A stretch of 63,942 nt of DNA, filler included, from Lenisia limosa (lineage: Eukaryota; Protista; Breviatea), in the NCBI GenBank assembly GCA_001655205.1. It is 11 parts of 11 records of this genome, joined end to end, with 100 filler letters (N's around TTAATTAATTAA, not from the genome) between each part and the next. Parts side by side here need not be neighbours in the genome. Positions count along the whole stretch, not along the records: positions 1 to 21,866 come from LPNZ01006109.1; positions 21,967 to 26,297 come from LPNZ01001376.1; positions 26,398 to 34,479 come from LPNZ01010109.1; positions 34,580 to 40,039 come from LPNZ01008291.1; positions 40,140 to 42,238 come from LPNZ01005018.1; positions 42,339 to 44,259 come from LPNZ01006866.1; positions 44,360 to 48,007 come from LPNZ01010354.1; positions 48,108 to 57,399 come from LPNZ01005222.1; 3 more parts are not named here. One strand, 5' to 3'. Numbering within the stretch: the first letter of the stretch is position 1; every line of letters begins with the position of its first letter. The notes under the pieces are model-generated. The model ran no database searches. It saw only the letters and a list, made by a program, of their open reading frames with translations, and was not told the DNA's origin. This document shows positions 354 through 54,200 of this stretch, in pieces. The position numbers and the translations under genes were made by a program.

Positions 354-3300
354 TTAACGACCGTATTCTTCAACAAAAACGAGAGGGGAGAGTTCAGTGA
401 GGAGTGACATGGAATCGACGATCGTCCACATACTGTGATGGCTTTTCGGGTTCGGGTTCGCTGGCTTCGGGACTAATGGGCACGAGTTGCTGGAATTCGT
501 GAGCAGGTGAAATAGAGACACCGTAGAATGTGCAAAAGTAACCATTCTTGGTCCAAGAAGATATTCACTCTGTTGTGATTGTATCCCAAAATTGCCAAGG
601 TAGAGNNNNNNNNNNNNNNNNNNNNNNNNNNNNNNNNNNNNNNNNNNNNNNNNNNNNNNNNNNNNNNNNNNNNNNNNNNNNNNNNNCAGGGGCCTTCTTG
701 CTAAATAAGGAAGGTAGCGCAAGTCGGACAATATCCGAGAAATGTGCTGATGTGGGGGATGTAACCTCCTCATCGGGTTCCTCGTCCATGTATGGCCAAA
801 ACAGGCAGTAGAGGATAACGAAGATGATCACGGCGAGGATGAGGACTATGAGAAGCCATAAGTACCATGGCCAACTGTCGTCTTCTTCAGGCTCTGTTAC
901 TGCAAAGGTGAGTACAAAACTATACTTTATTGTTTTTTTTGGAAACTACTATTGCACCAACAACAGCAAAAAAAGAAAACACCCTTCGCACTAATAACAA
1001 CATCGGAAGAAGAGTCGTCAACAATTGCAGTCACACAGTCGCTGCCGGTATATCCGTCTGAGCACTGGCATTTGCCCTAAGATGATGAGTGTCTCGTTTG
1101 ATAAGGGATAGATGACCAAGAGAACCTAATTCTATCGCGGGGTAAAGTCTTGATTCAAAAGATCGAGCCACAAATAGGGCTTCACTCCGATCCAAAAAGA
1201 AGGAATTATCTCGACAAATCCTTGATAAATATCGATATTTTACTGGTCTTTTTCCGAACAAGGGAATCCCTGGTAACAAACCTCCGAGCAGCTCCCGTGT
1301 GAGCATGACGCCGGGTCACAGACTCCTGTATTGTCAGGACTTTTGATGCGATAAACAAAATAGAGGAATGTGGAGACAGGTCTAGTAAAAAACCCAGAAA
1401 ATGAAGTCAGACACAGGTCAAAGATATATTGACAAACAGTCCGCGAAAATCGAAGAAAAAAAGAAGAAAAAGAAGAAAAAAAGAAGAAAAAGAAGAAAAA
1501 AAGAAGAAAAAGAAGAAAAAAAGAAAAAAAAATCAACACGCGATTTGCTGTTATGTCAATATAGTGCAGTTCAGTTCAGTTCCGCTCACGATCAATTGAC
1601 AGTGATACGCCATTTGTGACTTTTGACACTGAGAGCCCAACGCTGTCACTTGAAGCTCCAAAAGCCTCAACCTGTACGCGGTAATGGGAAATTCGCATGA
1701 TAAATGGGGGGGGGGGGNNNNNNNNNNNNNNNNNNNNNNNNNNNNNNNNNNNNNNNNNNNNNNNNNNNNNNNNNNNNNNNNNNNNNNNNNNNNNNNNNNN
1801 NNNNNNNNNNNNNNNNNNNNATGTCATTAATCCTTACAAATATTGCTATTACCTTGATCACCCGAAGCTTTAATAATCTCCATACCTTCGCAGAGAGAGT
1901 AGTGGTGATGGCTAAAAGAGCCATTGTGGAGCCTTCTGCAGCAGGAACTGAGGGGACAGAAACCTGGGTGGTCAATGGATGAGAGTCTCCGCCGGTGTGC
2001 TAAAAAGACGTTCTATTCACTAAATTCACCAATCAAAAATGTACTTTGTTCGTGCAAATGCTCCCCCCCCCCCCATTANNNNNNNNNNNNNNNNNNNNNN
2101 NNNNNNNNNNNNNNNNNNNNNNNNNNNNNNNNNNNNNNNNNNNNNNNNNNNNNNNNNNNNNNNNNNNNNNNNNNNNNNNNNNNGCGAAGTAATAACACCA
2201 GATCCACTAAATCGGGTTAACGACACGGTTAACAGCTTATAATTGAAAGTATAATGTACATGGGTTAATATGTATGTGATAAATTTCATATGTTTCATCA
2301 TGACATAATAAAAGGGAAATAAGCCAAGAAGAAAAGCACCCCCTACTTCATTGCTAGCTCAACCCAGCCTGCATCTTCAACCTGAAACGTGAATAGGAAA
2401 ATATAGCGTTAGAGAGAATGAATTACAGTTTAATGTTAAATACAGAATAATAACAATAAAAAAGATATCATAGCGAAAACAGAGATGTATATGGTCAAGG
2501 TTTGCAAATCCTCAGTTTAATAAGTGGCCTAACTACACTTGAATAACCGATGCTCCCAAAATATATAACAAACTGACTAATATCCTTCATTTTGATTCAT
2601 ACCCCCCCCCCCCTCCAACAGACAAAGACGCACTGATGGTAGGAGAACCGTCGGCAACAACAAGGCGGCCGGAAGCCACACGTACATCGCCGGTGACATC
2701 ATTCCAAAGCTCTAAAGTACCGTCGGAAACAAGTACACCGGAAGGGGCAGAAATAGCCCCCGCAGCCGCAACAGTTAGTTTGCCTTTGACCACGACTTCC
2801 TGGCCGGCGGTGAGGACTCCGGAGAAGACTGCAGCGGCGGAGGTGTCAAAGAGAACGGGCATAGCGGAAACGGTGAGGTCTCCGGCAGCGGACAGGGGCC
2901 CGTCTGGGGGGTGGGGTAAAATTGGAAAATTTATGAAACAAGTAAGCCCCAAATCAACTCTGTGGGCTAACAACATACGGGTTTAAAACAACAAAACGGG
3001 GGGGGGGGGNNNNNNNNNNNNNNNNNNNNNNNNNNNNNNNNNNNNNNNNNNNNNNNNNNNNNNNNNNNNNNNNNNNNNNNNNNNNNNNNNNNNNNNNNNN
3101 NNNGGTATTAATCGTCAATACTATTTCAATTGTAATGAGACAAAAACGTTCGAAGATAATCAAAATGATTAATCCTACCCACACCCCACAAACCGAAAGA
3201 AACAGAAGACCCTTCAGCTCCCGAGAGAGTTACGGTTTGTACATCAGCAATGACAACACTGGATGAAGACTCAAAACGAAGCGTACTGTCCTTTTCGAGC

Positions 3301-11100: not shown

Positions 11101-11239
11101 TCTAAAATTGGTTCATTACCTTACTGCACAGGATGCGAAGCACACCGCTATTGTTTGCGAGTCAATGGACGTTGAATCTTTCTGGACTCTCATGATTTCG
11201 TCGTTGAAGAGAGCTGATGCAGTGTCTGGTGTGAACTAA
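8124..11239 (+). CDS. iunH: Inosine-uridine preferring nucleoside hydrolase (IUNH family), multi-exon
   Basis: Exons read MSEAKKQRKMEAQEKL|VWLDCDPGH|DDMMAIFLA (DxDPGxDD motif), LIGLSTSHGNVDVEKTTANTL, VCPEIHGDSGLDG, GIGFGNITPAAEFNI, DPEAARIVMESG...VPLEVTH, PPLHDPCAIAYVI, FIDTSESPTAGRTCCD and MDVESFWTLMISSL; stop at 11239. Confidence 0.93.
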
Positions 11240-11598
11240 TTTCGTTATTTCTTACGGCTTCTTTGTTTCTTTTGTTCTTCATGGTTTTGAGTAACCAAGT
11301 GGTATGGCTTGATATAAAGGTATTTTTATTGGTGTGTGGAAAAGTGGAAAGCAAAAATCCATAACGGCATGAAATTGAATCTGAGGTGGACGCGAAAGGA
11401 TTTTGGATTTTGATTTGGGCGGTTTTAGTCAAGTTATTGTTAGGGAGCTGTGAATAATTGTTGTTTTGGTATATTATTTGAATAATAATAATTCATGATT
11501 TTAAAGAGTAGAGACTGCTAGGAGAACCCAACCTTTCCTGAAAACGCGAGAACAGGAACACTATCCTTCCCTCAAGGTCCCCAAATCAGTAATCCACA

Positions 11599-20487: not shown

Positions 20488-21698
20488 TTATGAAGAGTTG
20501 CAGCGGTACATTGGGAAGGGAGGCATGATGGACGAGTCCTGCAATGATAAGCTGTGCAATATGGTGATGGTTAAAAAAACAAAAAAAAAAAGTGTTCTGC
20601 GGCAAGGATACCACAAACAAACAAAGAATGAATGCACAATACCTAAATAAAACAAAAAACAACAAAATAAAAAACCCAAGCCCCTACCTGCGGATACTGT
20701 AAATTCGACACCGATCGTGACAAACCGCCCTCGGGGACACACTGCTGGTGACACTGGAGGTGAAAAGAGGAAAGATTGGAGTCAGCAGGGGAGGAGACGA
20801 GGGGTGAAATGTTAGGTAGGAAGTGCGACTGCGGAGGCTGCATAGCTAAGAATTGTTGGGACTGTTGTGTGTTTTGCCCAATAATGGCTCGGGCTTGCTG
20901 GTGTGCCAGGGCAGCAAGCTGGTCAAGTTGGGATGCAGAAAGGAAGGGGTTGTCTCTTCCCAAGTCCGCAAGAAGACCGTTGATGTCGGTTGTGTTCGGC
21001 TCAAGAACAAGCTGACTGGCCAAGGCGTTGACAATATCCTGTGGGGGGGGGGGTANNNNNNNNNNNNNNNNNNNNNNNNNNNNNNNNNNNNNNNNNNNNN
21101 NNNNNNNNNNNNNNNNNNNNNNNNNNNNNNNNNNGGTTGATAACAATAAAACAAATTAAACAAAAAAATAATTCAGAATCAATCTGTTGGCTAGGATTTG
21201 TTTCACCCATAAGGGTTAAAAGGCACCAAATCCCATCCCTTCAGCGTACATGGGGATGAACTGGGACATATCCGAGATTTTTTAATAAAAATAATAATAA
21301 AAACTGACAGAGGGAGAGAAGAAAGAGTGCTGGGGTGTATGATATATAGGGAGGGTAATCAGCTATCAGCCACAATACCTTAACTTCCACAGGTTCAGCT
21401 GCTGAGGTGGGCTCGTCAAAGGGCTGGCACGGGGCCCTGATACATATGAGAAGGGGTGGGGGCAGCGTAGTAAGATTAAGTCTTGATAGAACACGCGGAT
21501 TTCCATTTAACAGACCTTGTTTTGGCACAAAAGTGTTTTTTACCCCGCCATTGCCATTGAGAAGAATGACAATATTCCTTACCATAATATGATATCCTTT
21601 TCACTCACCTTAGATTGATTTCTCCGCGGGCTTGAGGATGGAAGTAGGCCATTTCTATGAAGAGCGCATCGCGAAGAGACTCTCGTGACAGAGGGACC
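20488..21698 (-). CDS. Partial gene (5' end lost in gap), unknown protein with a Gln/Ser/Pro-rich C-terminus
   Basis: Exons VPLSRESLRDALFIEMAYFHPQARGEINL|RAPCQPFDEPTSAAEPVEVK|...DIVNALASQLVLEPNTTDINGLLADLGRDNPFLSASQLDQLAALAHQQARAIIGQNTQQSQQ...|LSLQDSSIMPPFPMYRCNSS-stop, with canonical GT/AG boundaries. Confidence 0.7.
21039..21249 (-). mobile_element. Family A copy that appears to be a complete intron (candidate introner)
   Basis: Minus strand begins GTACGCtgaagggatgggatttggtgc, contains tagccaacagattgattctg and ends taccccccccccacAG just before the exon gatattgtc. Interrupted by an N gap. Confidence 0.7.
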
Positions 21699-21779
21699 TG
21701 GAAGATGAGTCTTGTGCTACTTTAATCATAACATATCTGATATGCATATCATATCCTTACTCTCAACCCCGTCACTATG

Positions 21780-21866
21780 TTTGTTTTGTTTGGAGTTTTA
21801 GATTATTCCGTTCGTGATTAGTACCTTTACGCCAATATTTCTTTCGTTTTACTGCCCCCCCCCCCC
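21780..21866 (+). mobile_element. Family A/C 3' module, antisense to the minus-strand gene whose intron it lies in
   Basis: tttggagttttagattattccgttcgtgattagtacctttacgccaatattttctttcgttttactgcccccccc matches copies at 28780-28830 and 29962-30030. Confidence 0.7.
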
Positions 21867-21966: not shown

Positions 21967-22956
21967 ATCGGACGAAGCGCCCATGCCCAGGTTGCCGTCT
22001 TTTCGCCTGGGCAGAACCAAGCTCAGTCCATCCAGGACCCTCGAGCAATAGTGTTACAAGTAGGGGTTGGGGAAGGGATATAGGTAGTGCTGCTCTTCGG
22101 TTCGGTTCGATATCGATGATAGAGACCGATTCAGATTGACCCGGTTCGGTCTCAGATTATACTTAGACAAAGATAGATGGGGTAAAAACGACTGAGCTTA
22201 AAGTTGTCTGTTCCCAGTTGTTACTAAAAGTAAATGCCAAGTTGTTTGTTTTTTGAAAAAAAAAATAACACGTTACCCGTCCCGTATAAAGCAGTGCTTC
22301 AGACAAGCTTGGTCTTTGATCATATTATTGTTTTCAACCCTCGTATATGTTACCGAAATGTTAAGCCAACAGATTTGATTTTGGTTTTTTTTTGTTTCCA
22401 ATTTTCCAACCCCAAACCCAATAGGTCTCCTTGGATGACGGCAAAACGTTTAATGCGATACCCTCGCTACAGTTCTGTCAGCTCTGCAAGGTACCGTTGG
22501 CTTGTATCGTATTTGAACTTCACGTTCCACTATGTCTAAGATCACTTACAGTACTTGATTTATTGATACCTGTAAATATTTTTTCAAACAATATTATTGC
22601 TATTATTTCGTATGAAGAGTGTCTTTTGATAAACATGACTATTGTATTGTACGTGTGGTATTGGCTCGTAGGGCATCTCTGTTTTATTATTGATTAATAA
22701 CTGATCCTCGTTTCTCTATCTCCATGCTTTTTTGATGTTTTTTGTTTTAGTTTTGTTAGAAGGTACTCATATCAAAACGTCTCAGAAAGAAAAATGTCTG
22801 AGTGCGATTGATAAAGTTCCCCCCCCCACTCCAAGAATCCAGGCCACCAATGAGAACAGTATTCATCCATTAACAGGGCACCTTGAGCATCTTTTTCAAG
22901 ACATCTCTTTGCTCTGTTTCAGTAGACACTTTGACAGCATCCTTACCCCACTCTAA
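21967..22956 (+). CDS. Partial gene with an IPT/TIG-like strand motif and a C2HC-type zinc finger
   Basis: Spliced ...QDPRAIVLQ|VSLDDGKTFNAIPSLQFCQLCKVPLACIVFELHVPLCLRSLT|EGTHIKTSQ...; donor caa|gtaggg and acceptor aatag|gtc. Starts at a linker gap. Confidence 0.55.
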
Positions 22957-22979
22957 GAGGGCAGGACCATTCTAGGTTA

Positions 22980-26537: not shown

Positions 26538-29500
26538 ATATGACTTAATAACTCACCCCACCAACCCATTATTTCTCAAGTCAATAACAAGTCTTCCAAG
26601 CTTTCTGTGGTATTTTGCCCATCCCTGCTGAATCGTCCTGATTGTGTCCTGTGCTGTTAAAAAAAGCAGGAAAAACAAAATAGACTATGATCTGGAGACA
26701 GGGAAAGAAAACAAGGTTGTATCTGGCCGAGGCCAGTCACTGTACATCACATAGCAAATCTGTCAAGACTTATCCCGGCCAGTGAATATCACATAGCAAA
26801 TCGGTCAAGACTAATCTCGGTCACTGTACATCATGTAGCAAATCGGTCAAGACTTATCTGTGCAGATACCCCCCCCCCCCNNNNNNNNNNNNNNNNNNNN
26901 NNNNNNNNNNNNNNNNNNNNNNNNNNNNNNNNNNNNNNNNNNTGAAAATGGTGATAAGTAGGGCTTCGGTTCCAAAAAGACTGGTCAAAAATGGATTTAT
27001 TGAGAAATTCAGTCTTTTGTTGAACAGAAATGAAGTGCCAGTGACAAGGTATTATTTTACTCACAATATTTAAAATGATTAATTCCGAAACCGGACTGTG
27101 AAAAACTATTTTAATAGGATATGGAATCTTCAAGACACCCCTGTCGGGTGAGAATGGAATCTTCAAGAAACCAAAAAGGCACAAAACCAATTCTAAACAC
27201 AGCAGTTTGAAGGGTGTAATGTAATTACACAGATACCACCAACGTTCAAAAACAGTATTTCACGTACCCCCTCTTACGTTTTCCACCCAGAAAGCATTTC
27301 CATCATTTGACTTAAACATTCTATCTTCTGGGGCGACCTAAGTGGTGAGGTGGGTGATAGTTATGATGGTGATGATATGATGATGATGGTGATGATGATG
27401 ATAGTGATGATGATGATGATATGATGATGATGGTGATGATAGTGATGTTTATGTTGATGATATGATGTATGGATGATGACAATAATAATATTGATGCTGA
27501 TAATGAATAATACATATTAGATATAACACTGTCCCCACCTCAAATTCATAAGGGTACACGCCGGGTTCAGCCACGTCCCCGATAAGTTCGTGGACTTGAT
27601 CGTTGATGAGCTTCAAATGGTGCTCCTCGTGTGTCAAGATGGGAGAGGCGGAGGTGTTGACCTTGGGGTGGAGTAAAAATGGAAAAGTAATAAAAAAAAA
27701 TCAAATAAAAAAAAAGCTCAAAATCAAACACAATAACAAAGCTCAAAATCAAATATGAGCGGGGGAGTAAAATTTGAAAAGCTATGCACCCCCCCCCCCC
27801 CNNNNNNNNNNNNNNNNNNNNNNNNNNNNNNNNNNNNNNNNNNNNNNNNNNNNNNNNNNNNNNNNNNNNNNNNNNNNNNNNNNNNNNNNNNNNNNNNTCG
27901 GTTCCATTAAGCGACGTGGCTTTTACTACGACCGAATTGTGTACGGGGCGGCTGAATGTGATCTGTGGGGGAGTAAAATTGGAAAATATATGATTACTAA
28001 TCACGAACCAGTCTTTTCAGATCATTATAATCGATATAGTATATCACAAATATCGATATTTATCACAAATATATATACTATATATATCATATATCATATA
28101 TACACGTAGATCGATATTTATCACATAAATATCTCGAAAAAACCGCGGACCATGGGTCTGTGAGCAAAGAAGCCGAACCGAGACTGGCCGAAGCCTGCCG
28201 TCGCCAGGTTGAAACGTGCGCCGCTGTCCTTTGTGTATCCGATCTGGGGGGTGATGGGGGGAAACGAAGGAAATTTCGATGAAGATCACAAACAGTAAAA
28301 TTGGAAAATTTATGAAACAAAAAAAAGCCCAAAATCAACTCTGTTGGCTGACAACACACAAGGGTTGATAACAACAAACAAACAAAGCCCAGGCCAGTCG
28401 CATCTGCAGCACCGCATCCCATCACTCACAACCGACAAATACACCGGACATAGGATAATGACCAAAAACAAGTACCTTTTCGGAGTAGACGTGGAGAGCC
28501 TGAATAGCAGGAACGCCGTCAATCTAAAAAGTTAGTTCCACATTCCTGAAGTGCTTTATCAATTCATAGTAATCTTTATCAATTCATAGTAATCTTTATC
28601 AATCTTAAGATCTTAATCTAAAATGTCACTGATATCTCAATCTTTTGTTGCCTGCAGTACAGATACCCCCATTCCCCCTCTCGACCCAACCTCATCTACA
28701 ATGAAGGTGTGGCCCAATTCGGCAGCAGTGTCCTGGTACAAAGTTGTGTTATACGCCAGATCGTAGCCTTTTCCAAACTGCGGTATGAGGGGGGAAAACT
28801 AAGGAAAGTTCCATGAAGAATATTGGCGTAAAGGTCCTAATCGTGAAAAGACAATTATAATATGTATCAACAAAAAACCAAAATATCATCTTCAACAACA
28901 AGAACAACACCAACAAGCTTTAGAACACCCCTTACATCAGCAACAAGAACAGCAACAATTCCTTACAATCAACAACACCACTTACGTCATCAACAAGAAC
29001 AGCCACAATGCACTCGTGGCCCTCAATGTAGACCGGGAACATAACGAAAGGCAAACGGTACGTGAAGGCCGCGTACGGCGAGGGCTGGGGGGGGGGGAGT
29101 AAATTGGCGTAAAGGNNNNNNNNNNNNNNNNNNNNNNNNNNNNNNNNNNNNNNNNNNNNNNNNNNNNNNNNNNNNNNNNNNNNNNNNNNNNNNNNNNNNN
29201 NNNNNNNNNNNNNNNNNNNNNNNNNNNNNNNNNNNNNNNNNNNNNNNNNNNNNNNNNNGATTCACCCAAAGTTGATTTTGGGCTTTTCTGTTTCAACATT
29301 TGCCATTTTACTACTACCTCCCACTTTAATAAGGCGGGTGTGGGCGTCGTTCAAACGGAGGAAAATCTCTGCCAGGTGCTAAAATATCAGTTTTTGTAGT
29401 ATTATAATATTATATAATTACATGCAATTATACTACAATGTAGTACCAGTACACCTCATGATATACGTATAATATTATATATACAAAGCCATCACACCAT

Positions 29501-30801
29501 CACGCTTATATGATTATGATAGTACATGTAGTAGTATATCATATCATATACTAGTATACTACATGTATATACCATATAATATGCATATGTGTATCCCAAT
29601 AGCCCACCTCATGGCGACCATGCACATATTATAATATAGCGATGAGAAATAAAAAACAAGGTTGCATCTGGCCACACCATCATTCTTATAAGAGATAAGA
29701 GATATTAGATTAGAGGTAACACATGGTATGATACAACATAAAATACACACTGTTATATATCATATATTCCCAACAGGCCATCTCATAGGTTTCTATCATT
29801 TATTATGTACAATATAATCTAAATCCTCGAAAACTATCGATATTTTACCGGTCTTTTTTTCGAAACGAAGTGAAGCTCTACTCCCAATCGCCCACCTCAT
29901 AAGTGTCGACCTCGAAGCCCGTTGTAGGCATCTTCTTCTCAAGATCTGCCATGATGTCTACCTGAGAGGGGGGGTAAAACGAAAGGAAATTTTGATGAAG
30001 AATATTGGCGAACCGAATAATCTGAAACTCCAAAAAAACAAGCAATAACAAACACGTTAAAACTAGACAAAAACAAGAAGAATGAAACACAAAACCAAGC
30101 CCTAAAACTAAGGAAATATTTATTAAGAATATTGGTATAAACTACTAATATACAGCGGATCAACTTGGGTTATTATGAACACGAGGCGCATGGACTTGGA
30201 TTATAATGAAAAAGTAAGAATCCCAAGTCAATGCGCCGTAGTATACAGCCCAACTTATTGTACAAGACAGTGGCCGTGATAGTCTTGACTGTTCATAGTG
30301 GTCAGTGAATAATATATCATGTCTATGTCTATGTCTATGTCTGTCTCCCGATGTCCCAGTACATAACACAAACATCTGTTTCATTCGCCCTCCCTTTCCT
30401 AAGCCTGATTGCATGCGGAAGTATTAAGAACAGCAATTGCACAACCGAAGAAAACGCCAGAACAATTCAGACAATCCTGACCAATTCACCAAGCACAAAC
30501 CATCCCGTCCGCCAGCTCCTTGCTTACCTGAAGAGGCACGTCGGGGGATGGTGACGAGCGGGACATCTCGGTGAAGACGTAAAACTGAGCCGCTTCCTTG
30601 AGAGAAGATCGGAGCTACAACGTCAATCAGCAGCGACCTCCTCCTTCCAACCTGCAACTGTGTCTCCTTCGAGATTTTGATGGACTTAAAGCACTTGTCC
30701 ACATCCTCCACCCGCGAGAACTCCTGGAGAACCTCGCATTCCGGGGATCCGAAGACCGCCACTGCAGTGAGCAGGATTATTAATGTTATCAATGATTTCA
30801 T
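26538..30801 (-). CDS. Secreted peptidase S41-like protein (eukaryotic tail-specific-protease-like), 3' partial
   Basis: MKSLITLIILLTAVAVFGSPECEVL...VDKCFKSIKISKETQLQ|SLKEAAQFYVFTEMSRSSPSPDVPLQ|VDIMADLEKK|HLAEIFLRLNDAHTRLIK|PSPYAAFTYRLPF|IDGVPAIQAL|IGYTKDSGARFNLA|...RKLGRLVIDLRNNG. The LNDAHT, DxGARFN and LVIDLRNNGG motifs are typical of S41-like proteins. Truncated at a linker gap. Confidence 0.8.
26738..26862. repeat. ~40-bp tandem repeat x3 (family E unit)
   Basis: catagcaaatcggtcaagact(a/t)atc...ggtcactgtacat; the same unit occurs as an inverted pair at 63486-63550. Confidence 0.75.
27350..27500. repeat. (GAT)n microsatellite in an intron
   Basis: gatgatgatggtgatgatgatg run. Confidence 0.9.
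28244..28427 (-). mobile_element. Family A copy plus short C tail, ending at an S41-gene acceptor
   Basis: gagtgatgggatgcggtgctgcagatgcgactggcctgggctttgtttg...agccaacagagttgattttgggctttttttgtttcataaattttccaattttac...aaatttccttcgtttccccccatcaccccccAG. Confidence 0.85.
29962..30135 (-). mobile_element. Family C module ending at an S41-gene acceptor
   Basis: ttgtctagttttaacgtgtttgttattg...ggagtttcagattattcggttcgccaatattcttcatcaaaatttcctttcgttttaccccccctctcAG. Confidence 0.8.
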
Positions 30802-33900: not shown

Positions 33901-34802
33901 GTATTTTCTTGACATGATACTGCAATATTCTAGGATTTGTGTTCATGCTAAACTTGTTGTATTGGTCACCACTTACCTCCCCAGAATTGATTTGGGCTTT
34001 TTTTGTTTCATAAATTTTCCAATTTTACGTACGCTGGAATGATGAGATGCGGTGCTGCAGAAGCGANNNNNNNNNNNNNNNNNNNNNNNNNNNNNNNNNN
34101 NNNNNNNNNNNNNNNNNNNNNNNNNNNNNNNNNNNNNNNNNNNNNNNNNNNNNNNNNNNNNNNNNNNNNNNNNNNNNNNNNNNNNNNNNNNNNTTTTCAA
34201 TTTTACTCCCCCCCTCCCCCCAGAACGCAAACTCTCTGTCCTGGATCCAAACGGTCGGACACGGACACTCCTCTCTAACGCCCTCGATCTGGCTCTTCTC
34301 GATAAGACCATCGATATGCTTGATGTGGGGAGGAGAATATCGGGCAAGAAAATATATTAAACAAATCAAGAGAAACATAAGAATGCATAGGGAACCATCA
34401 ACAAGTCGAAATATCCTTCGTTTTACGCTGGAGTGATGGGATGCGGTGCTGCTGGCCTGAGCGTTGATTGTTTTGTTGTNNNNNNNNNNNNNNNNNNNNN
34501 NNNNNNNNNNNNNNNNNNNNNNNTTAATTAATTAANNNNNNNNNNNNNNNNNNNNNNNNNNNNNNNNNNNNNNNNNNNNATGATATATATAGTGTGTGTA
34601 TATGTACTCGTACATATGCATAATACAGTAAATATATTACATATGACATATTATATATCATATGATATCATATGTATATGTATATGATATATCATATATT
34701 ATATATATGAAATGTGTATACATATGATACACTGTATATAATTTTGAAACTTTTAGGCTTGAAATTGAATCTGGAGTCCTTGGATCTCTGGCTGAGAGCT
34801 GA
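30968..34802 (+). CDS. Hypothetical multi-exon protein with an Arg/Ser/Phe-rich N-terminus
   Basis: MPGWFSRFFRSRPTLRASFEAVQTWSDVTSVDTLIKDFVSRERMMWK|FAGRMAAYRKLRQEALYLMRQMVMVLEVSQATRHGRD|LSVLDYDEEVLSEAERL...|LYVLTRLAKDKAQYP|DTMLFTTLGVFDRAFASFEHS|...ERKLSVLDPNGRTRTLLSNALDLALLDKTIDMLD|LEIESGVLGSLAES-stop. Confidence 0.7.
31927..32016. mobile_element. MITE family B copy with clear TIRs
   Basis: ta-GGGCTTCACTTAGGTTTGA...TCGAACCGAAGTGAAGCCC-ta. Confidence 0.88.
32585..32687. mobile_element. MITE family B copy
   Basis: cttcggttcgataaaa...atatcgatagttttcgaggatttatcgagaatcagtcttttttcgaaccaaagtgaagccctag. Confidence 0.85.
33334..33435. mobile_element. MITE family B variant copy
   Basis: tagggggg-cttccctacggtcc...ggaccgtggggaaccc-ta inverted termini, with the shared ctcgataaatatcga core. 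Confidence 0.75.
33985..34223 (+). mobile_element. Two head-to-tail family A copies ending at an acceptor
   Basis: gtttcataaattttccaatttTAC|GTACGCtggaatgatgagatgcggtgctgcaga...N...ttttactcccccctcccccAG. Confidence 0.8.
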
Positions 34803-40762: not shown

Positions 40763-43700
40763 TCACCCATTTGCGATGGCTACAGTATAGGCGTTCTGGG
40801 CAGCATCACATTCCAACTAAGCAGTGATTAGAACGTGTGGCTCAGCTGAAATGCAAGTAGACTTTTAAGATTGAAACAAAGCACTCCATATTTGTCACCC
40901 TTCTTGGTCTTTAGGGATCTGTCCCACCTCTACTCGTTCGCGTTCTTCAGCCACAATGGCACCGTCATCTATAGACACCAGCGAGGGGCATGTCTGGATC
41001 AGAGTGGAGCGGTACGCCTTATGTCGAGCTACCGGGTTGGAAGCGAGCACCACTGATTCGAGGCGAGTGGCTTCGAGGTTCTGGGGGAGGGGTAATAAAA
41101 CACCAACACAACTACCAAAGTACTGTTTTGTAATAAACAGTAGGACTTCACTTCAGTATATAAAAAGGGTGAATGTCTCAAAAACTACCGATATTAATCT
41201 TTTTGGACCGTAGTGAAGACCTATCACAAGGATTCGCTTGGAATGATGTCGAATACTTTCAGACATATATAAAATAAAAAAGAAAATAATAGGACCTTGA
41301 GCGTTGTGGAAATTAGAAAAGAGTTACTTCACCACCACCATCCCACCTGCAGGTCTCGGATGTCAGATATTCGATTTGATGACGCAATGAGAGTGTGGAG
41401 GTGGGGGAGGGGAAGGAGGGATGGCAGGGACTTCAGACCATTTCCTCTAGAGGCGAATTAACAATTTGTGCTGCAAGAGGGGGAGTGATAGATTGATAGA
41501 ATAAGATCAACATCTCAATACACACAGGCAAACGTTTGGTATCATGAAGAAATGAGAAATAAAACGGGAATATTTGGTATAATATTTCAACAAAAGGTTG
41601 ATAGTGTATTTTCCAATGATAAAAAGCCAGATTCCGAGAAGCAACAACAGTGATATGACGTACTTGATGTTTAGTACTCTAAGGAGAGGGAGCCTCATGA
41701 AGTGAGTGTCTTCCAATGTTCGAATGCGGTTATTGGAGACATCCAGAGACGTGACAGTGGCTGGAATGGTCATAGTATTTTAGTTTTTTTCATATTGATG
41801 TTTTTTCTTTGTTTTCATATTATTATACTATGTAATTACATATATCGTATATTATATGCATATGATATGATATATTCTAAATATATAGACCACAAGAAAA
41901 AGAAATTTAATCAGCGATACCACTCAACAACACAATTTCTCAAAATAGCAATTAATCCCCAATAATTCCTTCAGCGGTAACATGGCAATCTTGTCTATAG
42001 TGTCCCCATTTTTTCATTGAATATTATTAAAGAAAGCTGCAAAACCTCAAATGGAAACTCGAAGTGAAAGTAGTTTACCTAGGATTTGTGGAAGGAGTTT
42101 TCAAAATCATAGGTTATGATAATGTGAATCTCGTTTGGAGACATGCAGTAATACATGCTCTCAACACGTACATGGAACGCCTTTTAACCAAATATGTACT
42201 ATGTAATATATCATATAGGTGACCACCCAAAAACGCGANNNNNNNNNNNNNNNNNNNNNNNNNNNNNNNNNNNNNNNNNNNNTTAATTAATTAANNNNNN
42301 NNNNNNNNNNNNNNNNNNNNNNNNNNNNNNNNNNNNNNTCCCCCCTCCCACTCACCCATAGACGCTTGTCGTCTATGACTCTTATCGCCATGGTGGTGAT
42401 GGTGGTGCTTGTGATGGTGTTTATGACGATGGCGATGGCTGGGTAAAGTTACACGATTGAAATGACACGAAGAGATATACTTGTAAGTACAACAAGGTTG
42501 TATCTGGCCGAAGCCGTCCACATCATCACGCTGAGAAGAGATATTGGATAATCAGTATCATATCAATTAACCCAATCATTTGCCTTATTTCTGCGTGGTT
42601 CCCCACTAGTGATGGACTGTTTCGAAAGGAATTGAATTAGGGTTTCACTTCAGTTCGAAAAAGACTGAATTTCTCGATAAATCCCCGAAAAGTATCGATA
42701 TTTTCCCCGGTATTTTTTCGAACCGAAGTGATATAATTCAAATTACCAAACACAAACCTTCCTTTGACTTCAGAGAGGGATTCTAAAAAGTGAGAAAAAA
42801 GTCACGTTAGGTGTACTCGCATACAAGTGACACACATTATACGATGTAAAGATATCATCTTCATAATTGTCACACCCAAACGTGGTGATTCTATTGAGAG
42901 TAATCATTTTGAACATATAACGAATCCGCATATAAACTGTCTTAATAACTTTCACAAATCATCAAAATAATAATTTAATAATAATAATAAATAAAAGTGT
43001 CTATTTGCAATTCTAAACACAATATCATCACCCACCCGAATGAAGGGATTCTAGGTCCTGCAAGCTCGGGATTCTCTTGGTGAACTCGTCGTCCTTGGCT
43101 GACAGCAGGGGCTGGCTCGGACTGCCAGTAAGAGCTGGCTGCTGGGGGATCTGGGGGACGGGGGAGTAAAATTGGAAAATTTAAGAAACAAGACCCAAAA
43201 TCAACTTAGTTGGTTAGCATTTNNNNNNNNNNNNNNNNNNNNNNNNNNNNNNNNNNNNNNNNNNNNNNNNNNNNNNNNNNNNNNNNNNNNNNNNNNNNNN
43301 NNNNNNNNNNNNNNNNNNNNNNNNNNNNNNNNNNNNNNNNNNNNNNNNNNNNNNNNNNNNNNNNNNNNNNNNNNNNNNNNNNNNNNNTCTCCAAAATTAC
43401 AGTAATGCCTTCACATTTCAATTAGTCACCATTTCTACCTTGGGCGTCACTTGGGTTCGAAAAATACCAGGAAAATCTTGATAGTTTTCGAGGATTTATC
43501 AAGAAATTGACTTTTTTGAAGCGACAAAACCTTATTTCTACCATTATTTTAAAAGTTACTCCTTGCAAACAAACACCTCATCCCCTCCATAAATTACCCT
43601 CGAGGGCGTATTTTACCAGTAACAGTATTTGATACCTGTTATTCAGAAAATACAACTATCTCCCCCTTCTTTACATTCCACACTCTCATATTTCGAATTC

Positions 43701-44208
43701 ATCCTCCTCCTCCAAAACTCTCCCCCNNNNNNNNNNNNNNNNNNNNNNNNNNNNNNNNNNNNNNNNNNNNNNNNNNNNNNNNNNNNNNNNNNNNNNNNNN
43801 NNNNNNNNNNNNNNNTTCAGAACACCCAAAGACTGGGGGGTAAATTGGAAAATTTATGAAACAAAAACTGTTGGCTGACTAGGAATGGGGTTTCATAGTT
43901 CATACTCTTTAACACCATATTGCCGTATTATTATATTATTTAAATCAAATCACATCTAATTTCATATTCACTCTCCCAATATTCTTTATCAAAATTTCCC
44001 GTTTTACCCCCCTTTGTTTTGTTGCTTCCCAAAAAAAGTTAACTCTGTTTTGGTTTGTTTCATGAAACCCCCGAACATCCCACCACACCTGTAGGGACGA
44101 AGATGACGAGGGCTCCTTGGCGCTCAGTAGGGGTCTTTGCTGGGCTTCAGCCGAGGGGGTGTCACAGACCACTTCAATGTTGGGCACAGCATCATCGTGT
44201 TTCTTATC
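40763..44208 (-). CDS. Leucine-rich-repeat protein with C-terminal LRRcap, 5' partial
   Basis: ...DKKHDDAVPNIEVVCDTPSAEAQQRPLLSAKEP|...IPQQPALTGSPSQPLLSAKDDEF|...TIPATVTSLDVSNNRIRTLEDTHFMRLPLLRVLNIK|GNGLKSLPSLLPLPHLHTLIASSNRISDIRDLQ|NLEATRLESVVLASNPVARHKAYRSTLIQTCPSLVSIDDGAIVAEERERVE|LECDAAQNAYTVAIANG-stop. Confidence 0.82.
42491..42600. repeat. Dispersed repeat family D
   Basis: acaaggttgtatctggccgaagccgtccacatcatcac...gagatattggataat...acccaatcatttgcctta; also at 56289-56403, inverted at 62690-62770, partial at 26710 and 29655. Confidence 0.75.
42638..42731. mobile_element. MITE family B copy
   Basis: tagggtttcacttcagttcgaaaaagactga...ttttttcgaaccgaagtga. Confidence 0.85.
43151..43222 (-). 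mobile_element. Family A 3' module at an LRR-gene acceptor
   Basis: gttgattttgggtcttgtttcttaaattttccaattttactcccccgtcccccAG. Confidence 0.8.
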
Positions 44209-44788
44209 CTACGGGAGGGGGATAAAGGGAAATTTATGAAACAAAAAAAGTCCAGAATCNNNNNNNNNNNNNNNNNNNNNNNNNNNNNNNNNNNNNNNNN
44301 NNNTTAATTAATTAANNNNNNNNNNNNNNNNNNNNNNNNNNNNNNNNNNNNNNNNNNNNTCCCTAACCGACTTGCCGGAGCTTTGTTTGTTTTATTTTGC
44401 TGTTTTCAATCGTTGTATGTTTCTTAATTATTTGGCCAACAGAGTTGATTCTGCGGTTTTTTTTGTTTTCTCAATCACCCTGCTCCCTGAATATGTTATT
44501 TCTCTTTCCACACAATTACGTGTCCTGGTTACGGAACAAGCGCTAATGTTGGCTTTTATTGCGAATGTCAACCCACATTTTTATTTTATTTTTTATCATG
44601 GTTTGTACTCCTAATAATTCGGCTTTCTTAAAACAATGCCATCTANNNNNNNNNNNNNNNNNNNNNNNNNNNNNNNNNNNNNNNNNNNNNNNNNNNNNNN
44701 NNNNNNNNNNNNNNNNNNNNNNNNNNNNNNNNNNNNNNNNNNNNNNNNNNNNNNNNNNNNNNNNNNNNNNNCCCCTTTCACATTTTAG

Positions 44789-46055
44789 GGCGACGACGCC
44801 GACGATTTGAATGTGCGAAAAGTCCAGCTGCAGACCAGAAGCCAAGTGGGTAGTATTCAGTCTTTTTTGGAACCAAAAGTGAAGCTCTGGTTTTTCTTCC
44901 TATTAGGATGATGAAGTGTTCTGGGCTTTGTTGTCTTCAACCCTTGTGTGTCCCTAGCCAACATAGTTGATTTTGGGATTGTTTTTTTGACTTCAAAAAT
45001 TTTGTTATCTGGCTTTTGTCAAGTTTTAGCGTTGGTTGCTCGTGTTTGTTATTGTGTGTGTGTTATTGTGTGTGTGTTTTTGTTTGTTTGTTCGGAGTTT
45101 CAGATTATNNNNNNNNNNNNNNNNNNNNNNNNNNNNNNNNNNNNNNNNNNNNNNNNNNNNNNNNNNNNNNNNNNNNNNNNNNNNNNNNNNNNNNNNNNNN
45201 NNNNNNNNNNNNNNNNNNNNNNNNNNNNNNNNNNNNNNNNNNNNNNNNNNNNNNNNNNNNNNNNNNNNNNNNNNNNNNNNNNNNNNNNNNNNTATGTGAA
45301 GCTGATCAAGGAAAAAATCGTGGAGGAGAAGGAATTGGCAAAGCAGTTCTTGGATGTGGGGGGGGGGGGTAAACGTTGTTTTTTGAAGAGAAATACTATA
45401 GACATTTGAAGAAACCTAGGGAAATAATACCTACATAAGGACATCATAAACTAATTACCATACTTCCGCGCCCCAAATGATGGTTTTGTTGTGTTTTACT
45501 GCTGTGAGGACTGGTACTTACAATAATATTTGTTGTGTGTGTTTGTGTATGTAGCGAGGGGTTAACATGGTTTGATATATGATGGTTTTGTGTTTTTTTT
45601 TTTTGGAATATCATGGCAATCAGCTGAGAGAAGAGGGACATCATGGCAATCAGCTGAGAGAAGAGGGACATCATTTGATTTTGAATAGATAAAAATTGGT
45701 AAACGTTTTCTATTTTTTTTAAACAAAAGAAATAATATGTATTAAAAATCTAGGGAAACTAATAAATACATAGGGACCATCATCAAATAACCATTATATA
45801 TATATATATTTTATATCATATGTCAATTTTTTTCTCTCCATACTATCTGCGATTGGATGCGGGCCTGGGCTTTGTTTTGTTTTGTTGTTTTAAACCCTTG
45901 TCTGTTTCCCAAATGCGAGCCAATAAAGTTGATTCTGGAAATTTGTCGTTACATAAAATGTCCATTTTCACCCCCTCCCCCAGGGAGGCGAGAGAGAAGC
46001 AGCCACTCACTGCCTCCGGAGAGTCAAGTGCATGCAGGCTGAGATTGAGGAGTAG
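44789..46055 (+). CDS. 3' fragment of a helical protein, weakly like CC2D1/DM14-type helical repeats
   Basis: GDDADDLNVRKVQLQTRSQ|YVKLIKEKIVEEKELAKQFLD|GGEREAATHCLRRVKCMQAEIEE-stop with good splice sites. The family assignment is from memory only. Confidence 0.55.
44940..45108 (+). mobile_element. Long-form element: family A module running into family C module
   Basis: aacccttgtgtgtccctagccaacatagttgattttggg...atctggcttttgtcaagttttagcgttggttgctcgtgtttgttattg...ggagtttcagattat. Confidence 0.75.
45850..45983 (+). mobile_element. Family A copy at an acceptor
   Basis: ggcctgggctttgttttgttttgttgttttaaacccttgtctgtttcccaaatgcgagccaataaagttgattctg...ttttcaccccctccccAG. Confidence 0.8.
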
Positions 46056-48192: not shown

Positions 48193-48215
48193 CCGCGCCT
48201 TAGCCGACGTTGGCG

Positions 48216-51200
48216 TTACGACTGCGCCAACAGGTACCGGAGACGGCGTTCGTACGGCTGCAGGGTAAAGGAAATGCTCCGTCTCATTAAAAAATGGCTT
48301 GATATTTTCAAAAAAAAAGGTGATAAAAGTGATGTTTTAATATTAAAGGAGAGAGTAGCTCACTTAAAAATATAATAACAATATCGATTAAGAAGATAAA
48401 CCGTGATAGGGCTCAAGGAAATATGGCTCCTCAAACATGGAACTTCAGCGGTGTGGGTGATGGCGGTCATTTTCGGCTGCTGCGGCGAGTGTGACATAAA
48501 ACTACTTTCCTTTTTCGGCTTCTTCTGAGGGGAGACAAAAGGAAGCTTGGAAGTTTGAAATCTTTTTGGTGAAGTAAGGGAGTCAATAACATGGCCCGGA
48601 AGTTGTGGAGCGGTCCGACCAGAGAATGCAGGTGAATTAGATGATAAGGAGCTGGACGGCGGCTGGGAGGAGATCCGGCCGCTTTGCTTATTGAAGGAAA
48701 TGGGTGGACTCAGTGGCTGATGTGCGAGAGCCGGCGACAGCATGTTCCGCGGCAGAATTGTACCGCCACAATCGCTTTCGTCCGTGTCGGATACAAACAT
48801 TTCAGCTACATTGAAGCAGGTCGAAGATGGCTCAGAAGGGTTGCGCGTTGAGCGCTGAGATAAGCGCGGTTTGGGGAGTTGCGACTGGCTCCGAGCAACG
48901 GCACATACTGAATTAGGTATGTATTGTGTGGAATGTTTGGAGGTGGCTGGTGCATCGGATGGATTGCTAATGGAAACCCCAGGAGAATTAGTGGATGTTT
49001 CTTTCTTTGGGGAGGTCTTTGGTGTAGATTTTTGCGACTTGCTCGGTGGAGGAGAGAGACACTGACTGGCAATATGAGCCGGAAGGGGTATCGTGATTTT
49101 GGAGGGCTTTCGACGAAGAGTATTCGACTTCACAACTGCCTTATTATGAACTTGAGAAAAGGGGGTCATCTCATTAGGAAGTTGGGAAGAGGAGAGTACT
49201 TCCTCGTTTGGAAGTTGAGCAGCGAGGAAATTTGTCTGATTCTGAAGATGCTTCAGGGAGACTTCCTGTTTCGCCACACCAATTTCCAGAGGGCTAGGCG
49301 ATCTTGAAAAGGGTCGTTTACTTGGGAGTCGCTGGAGTTGCGGCGGGGTGTGAGGGAAATAGGAGGGGAACGGTGGAGAGGCGGGAATGGGACTGCTTCG
49401 AACTAACTGCTCCTTTTCTTTCCTTCGATCTTCTGCTTTTTTCATTTCTTCATCCTTTTTCTCTTGAGCTTCAGCGCCTTCTTTCCTTCTTATTTCTTCC
49501 ATTATTTTAACTTCTTCTTCTCTTTTTAACTTCTCTATTCTCTTCTTTTCTCCTTCCTTCCTCACCTTTTCTTCTGCTTTTCTCACTTCCTCTTCTCTTT
49601 TCTTATTCTCCTCATTCTTTCTCCTCTCTTCTTCTTTCATTTTCATCTTTTCATTCCTTCTCTTCTCTTCTTCTTTCCTTTTCTCTTCTTCCCTCTCTAG
49701 CTTCATCTTCCTGAGCTCCTCACTTCTCATTTCCATCATTTGGCTGCGCTGGTCTTCGCGTATGTGCGTTGTCCGCTCATTCTTGGCACGAGCTTCAAGG
49801 AACCTCTGCTGCCGTACTGCCTGCTCGAGGCCTTTCGAAAGGTCTGCAGACATCCAAGGCCAAATACTACTCCGCCACTTACTGTCAGAAGCCCCGGCGG
49901 CGGACTGTGTGAACGACTCTAGCGATGCCGTATCCGTAAACACAGCTCGGGTAAGCAGGTCGGAATCGGGGAGGTTGAGCACAGGTGGAGCTTCAATCGC
50001 GGCGGAACTATCTGGAACAGCCAATACAGTAGGTGTGGCGATTGGCCGGGGTATAAGGGGGCCAGGAGTTTGAGACAGCGACCGTGTTCGGAACATTTCG
50101 ACGGGGTATGATGGGTCAGGAATGTGGGAAAATGGCTTGGGTGGCTGGTTGCTTTGATTTGTTTCTTCGACTTGTGTGAGTGGAGGTGAGAGAGATGGGA
50201 GAGCCATCCAGGTAATGGCTTTGTCACAGGGGCGTGAAGGTGATGATGCTCGTTCAAAGACTCTTCTGTGGGGAGGGGGGTNNNNNNNNNNNNNNNNNNN
50301 NNNNNNNNNNNNNNNNNNNNNNNNNNNNNNNNNNNNNNNNNNNNNNNNNNNNNNNNNNNNNNNNNNNNNNNNCTCTGTTGGAAGGGAGGAGGGAAAAGAG
50401 AGAAATGAGCGAGAGAAAAAAGAGAGAAATGAGCGAGAGAAAAAAGAGAGAGGTAAGAAGCTACTGCGATTCGTAATAAAAAGTGGATATTTGGGTATTT
50501 AACCATCTTATCAGGCCAAAACCATTTAAAGATAGACATATTATATCCTTCTGTATAGACCCCCGAAGTAAATACTCGTGAATATACATTTATTTAAATG
50601 TACATAAAGAATTACATAGAGAAATTCACACAAAACAAAAGAATTGAAGAGCCAACAAACCGAATTTTATCATCTCTAAAAAAAAGCAGGATCTCAACCC
50701 AGAAAAAAATCCTGCCTTCACACAGTTAGTCCAGACAGGCAGAAAAGAGAAATATAGGTAGCCGAAGCCATAAAGCCATCAACTGTGAAACATATAATCA
50801 TATATATACGTATTCCTGATACTTTCCCAATGTCAAACATTTCCTGTCCCTTACGCTGGATTTGGCGAAGATATCCTGTCGAAAGTGAACTCTGGCTCAT
50901 TGTTATCGTCACTGTCACTCTCCATTGGAATCGAAGAAACTGAGTACCTAAGGGGTAGGATGATAGGCGTATGAGAGAAAACGAACACTCATCATATCGA
51001 GCATATGATATACTTAAAAACATTTCATTACATATAATATATCAAATGGATATAATGGAGCACTGGTTATGGGAAATCAGCTCACTGATTGAGCGCGCCG
51101 AAACCTCCACCGTGTCCGCCAGACTTGGGCTGTGATACCGTGCTGGGTGAAGGAATCTCAGTATCCATCTACAGAGTCAACCAAGAGAAAAATCTGAAGA

Positions 51201-54200
51201 AGATATCTCCAGTTCTACAGTCCCCCCAGACAGGGAAGGACGAAATATTGAACTGAGAGGGTGGAGCTAGGCACTCAAGGGCTGTTTCTACCATAGGCTC
51301 TACAGAGGTTACATGCGTAGAAAAACAATTCCATCACTTAGAAGTCAAAATGGAAGGTTATACATCAATGAAAAAAAAGAGAACTTTCAATATTCATCAA
51401 TATTTCAGTATTCCAGGTCCTTCACCTCAGGCTTTGAAATGTCTCTTTGCAACTTGTCCTATGTTTATACTACCATATCATATGATATCATACGATACTA
51501 TTTGATGTAGTATAATATCATATGATATGAAATAACATACCAGGCGGTTCTTCGTATCCAGGGGAGAAGGCCAGGGCTTCGGGTGCGGGAATTGGGATCT
51601 AAAAAGGTTAGAATTTTGTTGTTCAAACAGTGTAAGATAATAGGGTTTTGGTTGGAAAGGTAAGGTCGCCAAATCTATTACGCAAGTTGAGTAACGCCAA
51701 ACTACACTCATCATAGGGTGCTTTTGATGAATTTTTATATACTTTTCCCAGAATTCCATCTGTGCACCCCCCCCCCCTCACAAGTTCGTCTTCCGACTCC
51801 TGCTTCTCTTTGTCCCCTTCATTATCCTTGTCTTTGGAATTCGCGCCTTTCTTCCTTTGTCGCTTGGCTGGTTGCTGATTGGAGTAAAATAATCAAGAAC
51901 TATTTGCACAATTTATTGAAAGGGCTAGAAGAAATAAAGACAAACCTAAGTTGCTTATAAATGCTTACCCTTCGCTTGACTGGTGTTGGTGGGAGAAACG
52001 AGGGAAGAATCGAGGGGTCCTGAAGGATTAGAAAAAGCAACAGGGGCATAAAAACAAACAAAACATAACAAAATAAAATTGAGAAGATGGATGAATATTT
52101 TCTTTTGATGCTTCAGCTATTTCACATCTCCCTTTACCCCTCATACATGACGTAGACGTGCAGCAAAGGAAGACACGGCATTGAGAACTTGAAAGTTGCG
52201 TGACTTCGGGTTTCTTGAGAGCGATATCGGAAGGTTCATCAGGTTAATTGCAGGGACTAAAAATGGTGAATCTTCGTCATTGTTGAACAATAAAACAAAC
52301 TGATTGGATCATAAAAGTCAGTACCAAAAGGCCCGACTTTACTGTTAAAAATCAGCCAAACACCCACCCGCAGCCATTCCTCCAGGGGGCAGCTTAGTGG
52401 CCAACCAATCTTCAGCCTGGAGTTTGTTATCATGCGGACGCTCAGAAATTAAACGGAAATTGCAGCTATATATCTGATCTATGCAGGCAATTGGAGCTAT
52501 ATATCTGATCTATGTATGATGTATCCATACTGTAATTATACTCTAACATCACCAAATCCTCTCTTCCGTTTTGTTTTTGTGTGAATTTTCTCTCCAAATT
52601 CCGGATCACCCTCCACTCTTTCACTTCAAATCGCCCATTACCATTACAGCGGCTTNNNNNNNNNNNNNNNNNNNNNNNNNNNNNNNNNNNNNNNNNNNNN
52701 NNNNNNNNNNNNNNNNNNNNNNNNNNNNNNNNNNNNNNNNNNNNNNNNNNNNNNNNNNNNNNNNNNNCTTTTTTGGGCTTAGCAACCATGGGAGAGAGAG
52801 CAATCATTTTCTCGGTAAAAACCGGGTTGACACCAGGGGGAATCTGGGGCGTGTTAAATGCAGAATCTTTCAGCCCTCATCCGCCGGCTGGAGTACTGGG
52901 AATGGCGGTAATTACATTTCAATGAGAAATAAAAAATATCAGGCAGTGGCCGTCCANNNNNNNNNNNNNNNNNNNNNNNNNNNNNNNNNNCTCCATAGCT
53001 CTCCATCGACAGTCGTAGCATTTACAATCAAGTAGATATTCAATTTGCCCGAAGTGAATCTGAGATCGGAATGGTTGGAAGTGCACAAACCATGAGGGGA
53101 GGATTGCGGAAGAAGAGGAAGTTCTTCGTATTCTTCAGCATTTTGTTCACCTGAGGGAGGGGGGGGGGGAGTAAAACGAAGGAAATTTCGGNNNNNNNNN
53201 NNNNNNNNNNNNNNNNNNNNNNNNNNNNNNNNNNNNNNNNNNNNNNNNNNNNNNNNNNNNNNNNNNNNNNNNNNNNNTAATCTGAAATTCTAAACAAAAA
53301 ACAAAAAATAAGCAATAACAAACACGAGCAAACAACGCTAAAACTAGACAAAAGCCAGATGACAAAAAGGGGGGTGAGAGGGGGAAAACACTAATAAAGA
53401 CCATAGAAGAGAGAAAAAAAAATTATTACCTTGTGTACCCATTGAGACAAGGGTAACAGTCTAGGCTTCCCTTCGGTCCGAAAAGACCGGTAAAATATCA
53501 ATATTTATCGAGGATTTATCAAGAAATTGAGTCTTTGTTTGGAACTATATATTCCCGAACCGAAGTGAAGCCTTAGATCCCACCAGCATCTCACCTGCTT
53601 GGCTTTGAGCAAGGCTGTTTCGTACTTCTTCACCTCATCACCCTCAGTTAGCAGCATTATAACTCGGCCGTCTCGTTTACGTCCTGTTCGTCCCTGTCTT
53701 TGTACCATTCTGGAGGAGGGAGTGAAATGAAGGACAATTTTGATGAAGAATACTGGTGTACNNNNNNNNNNNNNNNNNNNNNNNNNNNNNNNNNNNNNNN
53801 NNNNNNNNNNNNNNNNNNNACTATAATAAATTATTCATGAAACAAAAAAAAACAGAATCAACTCTGTTGGCTTGCATTTGAGAAACACACAAGGGTTAAA
53901 AACAACAAAACAAAGAGAGAGGGGGTAACGAATTGTGGTGCAGCATTGTTCCTTCTGAAAAAAGAGTATGTCATTGGTTTCGCTCCGGTCCGAAAACGAC
54001 CAGTAAAATATCGAGAAATTCAGTCTTTTCGGAGCGATATGAAGTTCAAGTCATATTAGGGCTTCACTTCGGTTCGAAAAAGACTGATAAAATATCGAAG
54101 ATTTTTCGAATATTTACCGAGGAATTCAGTCTTTTTTTGAACCGATGTGAAGTTCAAGTCCTAATCCTTAGATCTGCGATCCTTTTAAAACCCCCACAGA

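Follow-up and report, generated by a model that had tools for sequence, protein, structure and literature searches.

Does a dispersed repeat that ends at splice acceptors create the introns that carry it, or does it take over introns that already exist? The question is raised by a stretch of 63,942 nucleotides from the breviate Lenisia limosa (assembly GCA_001655205.1), referred to here as the window, in which 11 parts of 11 genome records are joined end to end. The assembly is a gapped short-read scaffold of an intron-rich eukaryote, and the window contains 46 runs of N, or 36 gaps once these are merged. A first-pass annotation had proposed a candidate introner, that is, an intron-generating or acceptor-replacing element family. 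The second half of that proposal has held up better than the first. The repeat supplies the 3' splice site of many introns in unrelated genes, as supported by RNA contigs. It likely enters introns that were already there and captures their acceptor end; it does not appear to create introns.

The family itself is well supported. A profile search of the window found 12 module-A and 6 module-B/C matches of at least 7 bits, and none when applied to 10 locally shuffled windows. Because window copies served as seeds for the profiles, those copies match by construction. The short tip motifs, which are unbiased in this respect, are in excess as well, with 14 matches to one where 4.7 were expected and 7 to the other where 0.24 were expected. 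In total there are 23 copies or stacks of copies. They lie in eight modelled, unrelated genes, where seven had been counted before. Seventeen end on the host strand at a C run followed by AG, three run into gaps, two are antisense and one has no assigned splice context. The sense 3' end of the 17 consists of a branch-like motif, a C run and AG, with no similarity continuing into the exon, and modules A and C are similar over their last 25 bases. Module A and the optional module C are present where they had been placed, and all 14 acceptors attributed to them have a host-strand AG (with 27664 corrected to 27662); 22424, 28778 and 50266 can now be added. Across aligned core columns the median identity is 86% (range 77-100%), a spread suggesting that activity extended over some time. 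The termini had been described as an imperfect inverted repeat. There is one, but it covers just 9 bases, one of them mismatched, together with a C run of varying length; only in the 28244 copy does it extend to about 13 bases, and it leaves out the first five bases of the 5' terminus.

No strong RNA structure was found, the 28244 copy folding like its shuffles (z -0.03). A search for a tRNA-, 7SL- or 5S-derived head gave no Rfam match at gathering score and no tRNA, though a decayed head would escape it. Relatives of the element numbered zero in metagenome contigs, and there were none in phages. Prokaryote genomes gave 0 and then 3 seed-only matches and viral contigs 5 seed-only and then 0, all taken as chance.

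The link between the repeat and the acceptor has been corroborated by RNA. The sequencing data are two runs of one study, X1 (DNA) and X2 (polyA RNA), in the form of contigs, not reads; X1 contains every sampled window word and may be the source of the assembly. Contigs of both were mapped onto 28130-34479, a span that excludes 2904, 21039 and the FANCM junctions. RNA record 9 aligns as the pieces 28151-28243, 28986-29084 and 30652-30787, and record 12 as 31147-31301, 31381-31568 and 34218-34326. Pieces thus stop exactly at 28243 and 29084, with exons starting directly after the AGs at 28244 and 29085, and donors 28985 and 28150 are fixed directly. A third acceptor, 34223, fits the RNA: the modelled exons give exactly the 110 letters needed, and the six bases by which the piece precedes 34224 are accounted for by an identical six-base end of the preceding exon. 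For record 9, an eight-exon model without a stop yields the 207 and 135 letters needed. Length fits of this kind are not unique (2639 and 34 candidates), and the models were chosen by splice-site strength and frame. More generally, frame, homology or length underlies most of the intron models, none of the introns has both of its ends listed directly by the RNA table, and the RNA evidence comes from one run, just as all window statistics come from one window.

The copies at these acceptors differ in structure. At 28244..28430 (-) a near-full module A is followed by a module C tip, and the modelled donor, 28475, lies 48 nt upstream. At 29085..29115 (-) there is a module C variant with 11 C, of which 31 bases are visible. 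At 33982..34223 (+) the 3' half of a module A is followed by a module A with a full start (34029) and a 127-nt gap. The two RNA-fixed donors serve further copies: 28150 lies 155 nt upstream of a module A tip at 27963..27995 (-; acceptor 27963), and 28985 lies 125 nt upstream of a module C copy at 28778..28860 (-; acceptor 28778). Element acceptors are also unusual in composition, with a C fraction of 0.73 and a C run of 6 (13 introns) against an element-free median of 0.33 and a run of 2 (37 introns). Given this contrast, the suggestion that long C runs are just the ordinary acceptors of this genome is only partly right. Moreover, the 3' ends are alike, 6 of 28 pairs scoring at least 24 compared with 0 of 378 among element-free 3' ends.

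The donor side is different. In 12 of the 14 modelled element-bearing introns the donor, RNA-fixed in two, is unrelated to the start of the element, the best score (19) being equal to the best element-free score; copies concealed in gaps could not be scored for 5' similarity. The distance from donor to element is 48-494 nt in the 13 introns where it could be measured. Intron 5' ends are no more alike than element-free ones (1 of 91 pairs scores at least 24), and element-bearing introns are longer (median 341 versus 167 nt). Among the copies the 3' end is constant and the 5' edge variable. A donor-like GT forms the first bases of only two copies, a third starts one base inside GT, and the flanks are unrelated. 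Target-site duplications, which the first-pass annotation had proposed as a check, show no excess: across 13 copies the value is 5.4 nt for own flanks and 5.2 nt for mismatched ones, and the single 8-nt case is of a kind that occurs in 7.7% of mismatched pairs. By the rule of Gozashti et al. (PMC9860276; PMC12130899), which asks for similarity at both intron ends, the family as seen in the window is not an introner.

The remaining two of the 14 introns are one with an inverted copy at its donor and the one at 21039. The copy at 21039..21249 (-) had been taken for a whole intron; it opens with the complete 5' start, GT included, and after a 79-nt gap closes with a C run and AG. Donor 21249 does preserve the frame, but donor 21378 preserves it equally. 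The 129 nt between them have an intron-like 38% GC (12 introns 22-42%, 13 exons 44-61%) and are also stop-free in frame, as are 10 of 90 intron frames. Composition would therefore favour 21378 and the open frame 21249, and on sequence the choice looks about even. An Atlas search with the disputed 21250-21576 frame gave no match, which decides nothing.

Where, then, does the repeat insert? A C-rich tract (at least 6 C in 10, within 25 nt upstream of the 5' edge, a cut-off set post hoc) precedes the outer 5' edge of 7 of 18 copies, compared with 9 of 340 intron-interior windows (Fisher p 2e-6). These tracts are indistinguishable from 37 element-free acceptor tracts. At 2904..3009 (-; acceptor 2904), a 12-C run (2998-3009) lies directly upstream of a module A core and is followed by a gap. 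A module C copy with a C run at 21777..21866 (+; host strand uncertain) has a C-rich tract upstream and enters a scaffold gap. A C-rich tract also lies upstream of the copies in three FANCM introns: 50266..50381 (-), where 9 bases of A core are followed by a 91-nt gap and then a C run with AG; 53151..53360 (-), module B-C with acceptor 53151; and 53710..53912 (-), A then C with acceptor 53710 fixed by homology, where a branch-like motif accompanies the tract. In the copies at 21039 and 50266, an N gap stands between the AG and the part of the element that can be recognised. At 33970-33984 a full acceptor-like motif with AG lies just ahead of the stack at 33982. The RNA nevertheless fits the downstream AG at 34223, and the junction of motif and stack lies inside a DNA contig of single-copy depth (X1 record 8).

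Copies are also stacked head to tail at single acceptors, in the orders A-C, A-A, C-A and C-B-C. Two module A tips stand in tandem at 27662..27793 (-), the second ending at acceptor 27662, and a module C tip precedes module B-C at 29962..30135 (-; acceptor 29962); the copies at 27662 and 29085 are recognised by short tip matches only. At 2 of 34 donors there are antisense tips that score above every one of 1020 shuffles; they end 15 and 22 nt from the donors. One, a module A tip at 29267..29324 (+), scores 20.1 bits where the best of the 1020 shuffles reaches 4.0, and its C-rich end forms the donor modelled for intron 29324-29085. The other, a C tip then an A tip at 43976..44088 (+), ends at modelled donor 44088; its tips score 16.4 and 6.2 bits, against 9.1 and 4.0 for the best shuffles. 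The shuffle test gave no support to two more antisense copies, suspected by eye at donors 2619 and 45356, and these were dropped. The intron middles and intergenic DNA of the window hold no confirmed copy of the element. Selection alone would leave harmless antisense copies in such places, which argues for targeting over selection. Placement is uneven among genes too. In a secreted protein gene (27500-30850, -) 6 of 9 modelled acceptors have the element, compared with 0 of 24 in the nucleoside hydrolase and ankyrin genes (9400-20300, +; p 8e-5).

The other copies complete the picture. Acceptors are reached by a diverged module A core at 22328..22424 (+; acceptor 22424), a module A 3' half at 43151..43222 (-; 43151), a module A 3' part at 43833..43877 (-; 43833), a module A tip at 44209..44259 (-; 44209) and a module A at 45850..45983 (+; 45983), the last with modelled donor 45356 lying 494 nt upstream. 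A module C tip fused to a module A start enters a scaffold gap at 34405..34479 (+), a diverged module A adjoins one at 44374..44475 (+), and module A then B at 44925..45108 (+) enters a 184-nt gap ahead of an exon. That many N gaps fall inside copies had been remarked on before, and 13 of the 36 gaps do touch a copy; 19 others could not be classed.

Is the family confined to this window? Onto the 6.35 kb mapped, 22,794 of 195,906 X1 contigs aligned, a second repeat family included. The summed X1 depth of module A is 325,000-536,000 at the listed positions, compared with about 36 in single-copy bins. Summed depth is no direct count, but it points to a copy number of roughly 500 (worst-case overlap inflation) to 15,000 (plain division), and the window density of about 20 per 64 kb, if typical, points to the upper part of this range. 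In RNA the element is only about 16 times as deep as host mRNA, which fits an almost wholly intronic family. The 165 DNA contigs that leave the 3' end of module A have as consensus a long C run then CAG (agreement 0.48), and 169 leave at an internal 5' point. Other genomic copies contain a tandem 41-51-nt 5' block of module A (28377-28427, X1 joints; depths 315 and 800). X1 joints also show the A end, a C run and then B, one of them retaining AG between modules.

What mechanism leaves a fixed 3' end, variable 5' edges, stacks, distant unrelated donors, C tracts and antisense donor stacks, as observed here? Tentatively, and stopping short of calling it probable, we favour a high-copy repeat that homes on the C-rich splice-site tracts of existing introns by target-primed copying of an intron-shaped RNA. 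The full unit would be an excised intron of about 150-165 nt, from GT start to AG end. Where a target tract is nicked, the C-rich 3' end of this RNA would base-pair to the G-rich strand there and prime a copying step that would often halt early. The old tract would be partly left upstream, and repeated insertion would build stacks, while the element's own branch motif and C run would become the new 3' end of the intron. Orientation would follow the C strand, that is, sense at acceptors and antisense at G-rich donors. The RNA intermediate, the nick and the enzyme are proposed by analogy with simple-repeat-targeting retroelements, and the family does combine a fixed 3' end and target-matching tail with a variable 5' end, the mark of a retroposon resembling a short interspersed nuclear element.

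Several observations weigh against such homing. Neither a reverse transcriptase partner nor an RNA intermediate nor an empty allele was seen in the one window and the RNA contigs. The flanks show no excess duplication, and a GT start is visible in only two copies. Older copies may have left the upstream C tracts as their tails, and one of the seven belongs to the element itself. Across the 5' block the summed depth is about 500,000, matching that of the core, which suggests that full-length copies are common genome-wide. Young copies are the likeliest to be lost in gaps, and true introner copies could hide there. To this must be added the non-unique intron models, the one window and the one RNA run.

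A bolder version of homing is possible, though less likely than not. Here the excised intron would be copied into the C-rich acceptor tracts of thousands of introns, replacing branch site and acceptor, and the splice site would be a place where insertion does no harm. An intron could then owe both its ends to the element, through an inverted copy at a G-rich donor (CAG at one end; a one-base change to GTG at the other). If true, 3' splice signals would be turning over genome-wide, invisibly to current introner screens. More generally, if the targeting that the window suggests holds genome-wide, a selfish element would be rewriting branch sites and acceptors in a large share of introns, which could account for the unusual C-rich acceptor signal and would provide a testable case of RNA-route intron transposition, long proposed but rarely caught.

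What if the family is a true introner after all? In this scenario, which we consider somewhat unlikely, a GT-to-AG unit enters exons and makes whole introns; the partial copies are old introns lengthened later, or secondary hits like the nested introners of Micromonas, and the young copies lie in N gaps. The full unit does have a donor-like GT, an AG end and a weak inner inverted repeat, donor 21249 preserves the frame, the depth of the 5' block equals that of the core, and the touched and unclassed gaps leave room for hidden copies. Introns 29324-29085 and 44088-43833 even have family sequence at both ends, inverted. However, a later insertion ought to leave the GT start at the donor, and 12 of 14 donors are unrelated to it. 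Nor does an introner predict the C-rich tracts before 5' edges or the antisense copies. FANCM at first seems to help. Its helicase exons were mapped by homology, with introns at positions 455.1, 489.0 and 559.1 (element-free) and 579.2 (element), and none of these four helicase-C positions matched an intron inferred in 80 metagenome loci. Nevertheless, the absence is equally true of the element-free introns, and the loci include no close relative; 65 show no inferred intron, many of the 80 are probably archaeal or intron-poor, and several of the inferred introns are doubtful. Separately, two sized gaps, 52656-52767 and 57872-57962, have coding-looking sequence on both sides and might conceal entire young introns.

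Templated repair or ectopic gene conversion at the DNA level is harder to separate from homing by its traces. Breaks at G or C runs would be mended from the C-run-AG end of another intron, with no dedicated enzyme and no RNA step. This predicts the same 3' anchoring, mosaics, stacks and strand independence, in other words nearly the same footprint, and both the clustering in the secreted protein gene and the absence of target duplication suit it. It offers no reason, though, why two copies with unrelated flanks should start exactly at GT, or a third just one base further in. A family of few modules that numbers hundreds to thousands of copies also better suits an amplifying element, and conversion is on balance unlikely.

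A non-autonomous DNA transposon that targets C runs, with a 3' terminal repeat that chances to give CAG, is improbable. Such a miniature inverted-repeat transposable element (MITE) or helitron-like element would resemble Micron or MINE-1; simple-repeat-targeting DNA elements are known (PMC3812793). The imperfect inverted repeat of 9 bases, or about 13 in one copy, would fit. So would the presence in the window of another MITE and of a Harbinger/PIF-type transposase fragment (25558-25731, -; Pfam DDE_Tnp_4, E 7.5e-6), which sits in a broken region at about 23-26 kb. On the other hand, there is no excess of target duplication, the 5' terminus is absent from most visible copies, the inverted repeat omits the first five bases, and the sense bias at acceptors is near-total, unlike that of the resident MITE. 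Helitron ends were also considered, but the expected termini were absent by eye.

An assembly artefact, in which short-read scaffolding joined repeat pieces to C runs, is very improbable, for although many of the 36 gaps lie in copies or at G or C runs and the tandem joint at 34028/34029 has no listed unique contig across it, zero-difference contigs of single-copy depth from X1, itself perhaps the assembly source, cross element-exon and element-intron junctions (28398-28842, 28815-29115, 29259-29848 and 32659-34016) and the RNA exon edges agree.

The resident MITE is about 100 nt long with terminal inverted repeats, and has 21 matches in the window (e.g., 1175-1271, 12723-12826, 31928-32016, 32593-32686, 33338-33435, 53462-53575 and 54058-54156) and a bin depth of 10,000-67,000 in X1. 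Inside modelled introns 7 matches are sense and 8 antisense, 66-874 nt from acceptors and never at one, in contrast to the acceptor-ending repeat; 6 of these 15 are no more than 36 nt from a donor. An 8-base target duplication accompanies the 33338 copy and, with the termini, suggests a hAT element. Long G runs stand just after donors 2619, 19123, 32557, 45356 and 51781, also without the element, and C runs near acceptors. Further runs are at 1706-1717, 40140-40152 and 40464-40475, and several gaps start at such runs, which could pair intron ends or form G-quadruplexes. Other small dispersed repeats emerged from self-comparison (26736-26858, 42485-42587, 56289-56375, 62735-62783 and 63519-63551). 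At 35500-39100 (-) there are broken frames with no Pfam match, one of which, by eye, resembles the RNase H region of DIRS-type retroelements. As for the host genes, the nucleoside hydrolase gene (9.4-11.2 kb; Pfam PF01156), cited as element-bearing, has no copy, and the S41 label was not confirmed, single-exon searches having given no Pfam, PDB or convincing profile match.

How does the family compare with known systems? No acceptor-homing family was described in the literature searched, which excluded most subscription papers and the supplementary family tables of two introner surveys, tables that could include this family. Antisense Alu elements provide a pyrimidine tract and AG, and make new internal exons from the middles of introns. 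In contrast, the copies here occupy a constitutive acceptor, and no exon is gained. The stwintrons and sister introns of Hypoxylaceae share with this family an intron-shaped unit within the splice element of another intron, similar copies and no target duplication, but according to the available text stwintrons take two splicing steps to remove, and in those that proliferate it is the donor that is interrupted (PMC8469720; Fekete et al., 2021). Removing the GT-AG unit at 21249 or 34029 rebuilds no AG at the junction.

Simple-repeat-targeting elements include the non-long-terminal-repeat elements Waldo, Mino, Kibi, Koshi and Dong, the MITE Micron and the helitron MINE-1 (PMC3812793). They share insertion into a simple tract, and in the retroelements among them copying is primed by base-pairing between tail and target. 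The targets named in the accessible part of that paper are AC, TC, TTC, TAA, GAAA and TA, none of them a C run or a splice site.

The closest comparison is with introners (transposon-derived introns are reviewed in PMC11282704). They too are short multi-copy sequences in the introns of unrelated genes and are spliced out, and some introner families carry only the 3' splice site. In Micromonas, 32 introner remnants lie in conserved introns, several copies are nested or merged, and an RNA route has been proposed (PMC3879977; Verhelst et al., 2013). Partial copies are nevertheless minor in what is reported of that whole-intron family, whereas in the window such partial copies, anchored at the acceptor and stacked, predominate, and antisense copies occur at donors besides. 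Introner surveys, as their accessible sections describe them, demand similarity at both intron boundaries and filter secondary insertions (PMC9860276, Gozashti et al., 2022; PMC12130899, 2025). In the window, 12 of 14 introns show similarity that reaches the acceptor alone, so survey pipelines would drop a family of this kind. The surveys set one-ended families aside as passive secondary insertions; the match seen in the window is precise, favours one strand and recurs, and looks like targeting.

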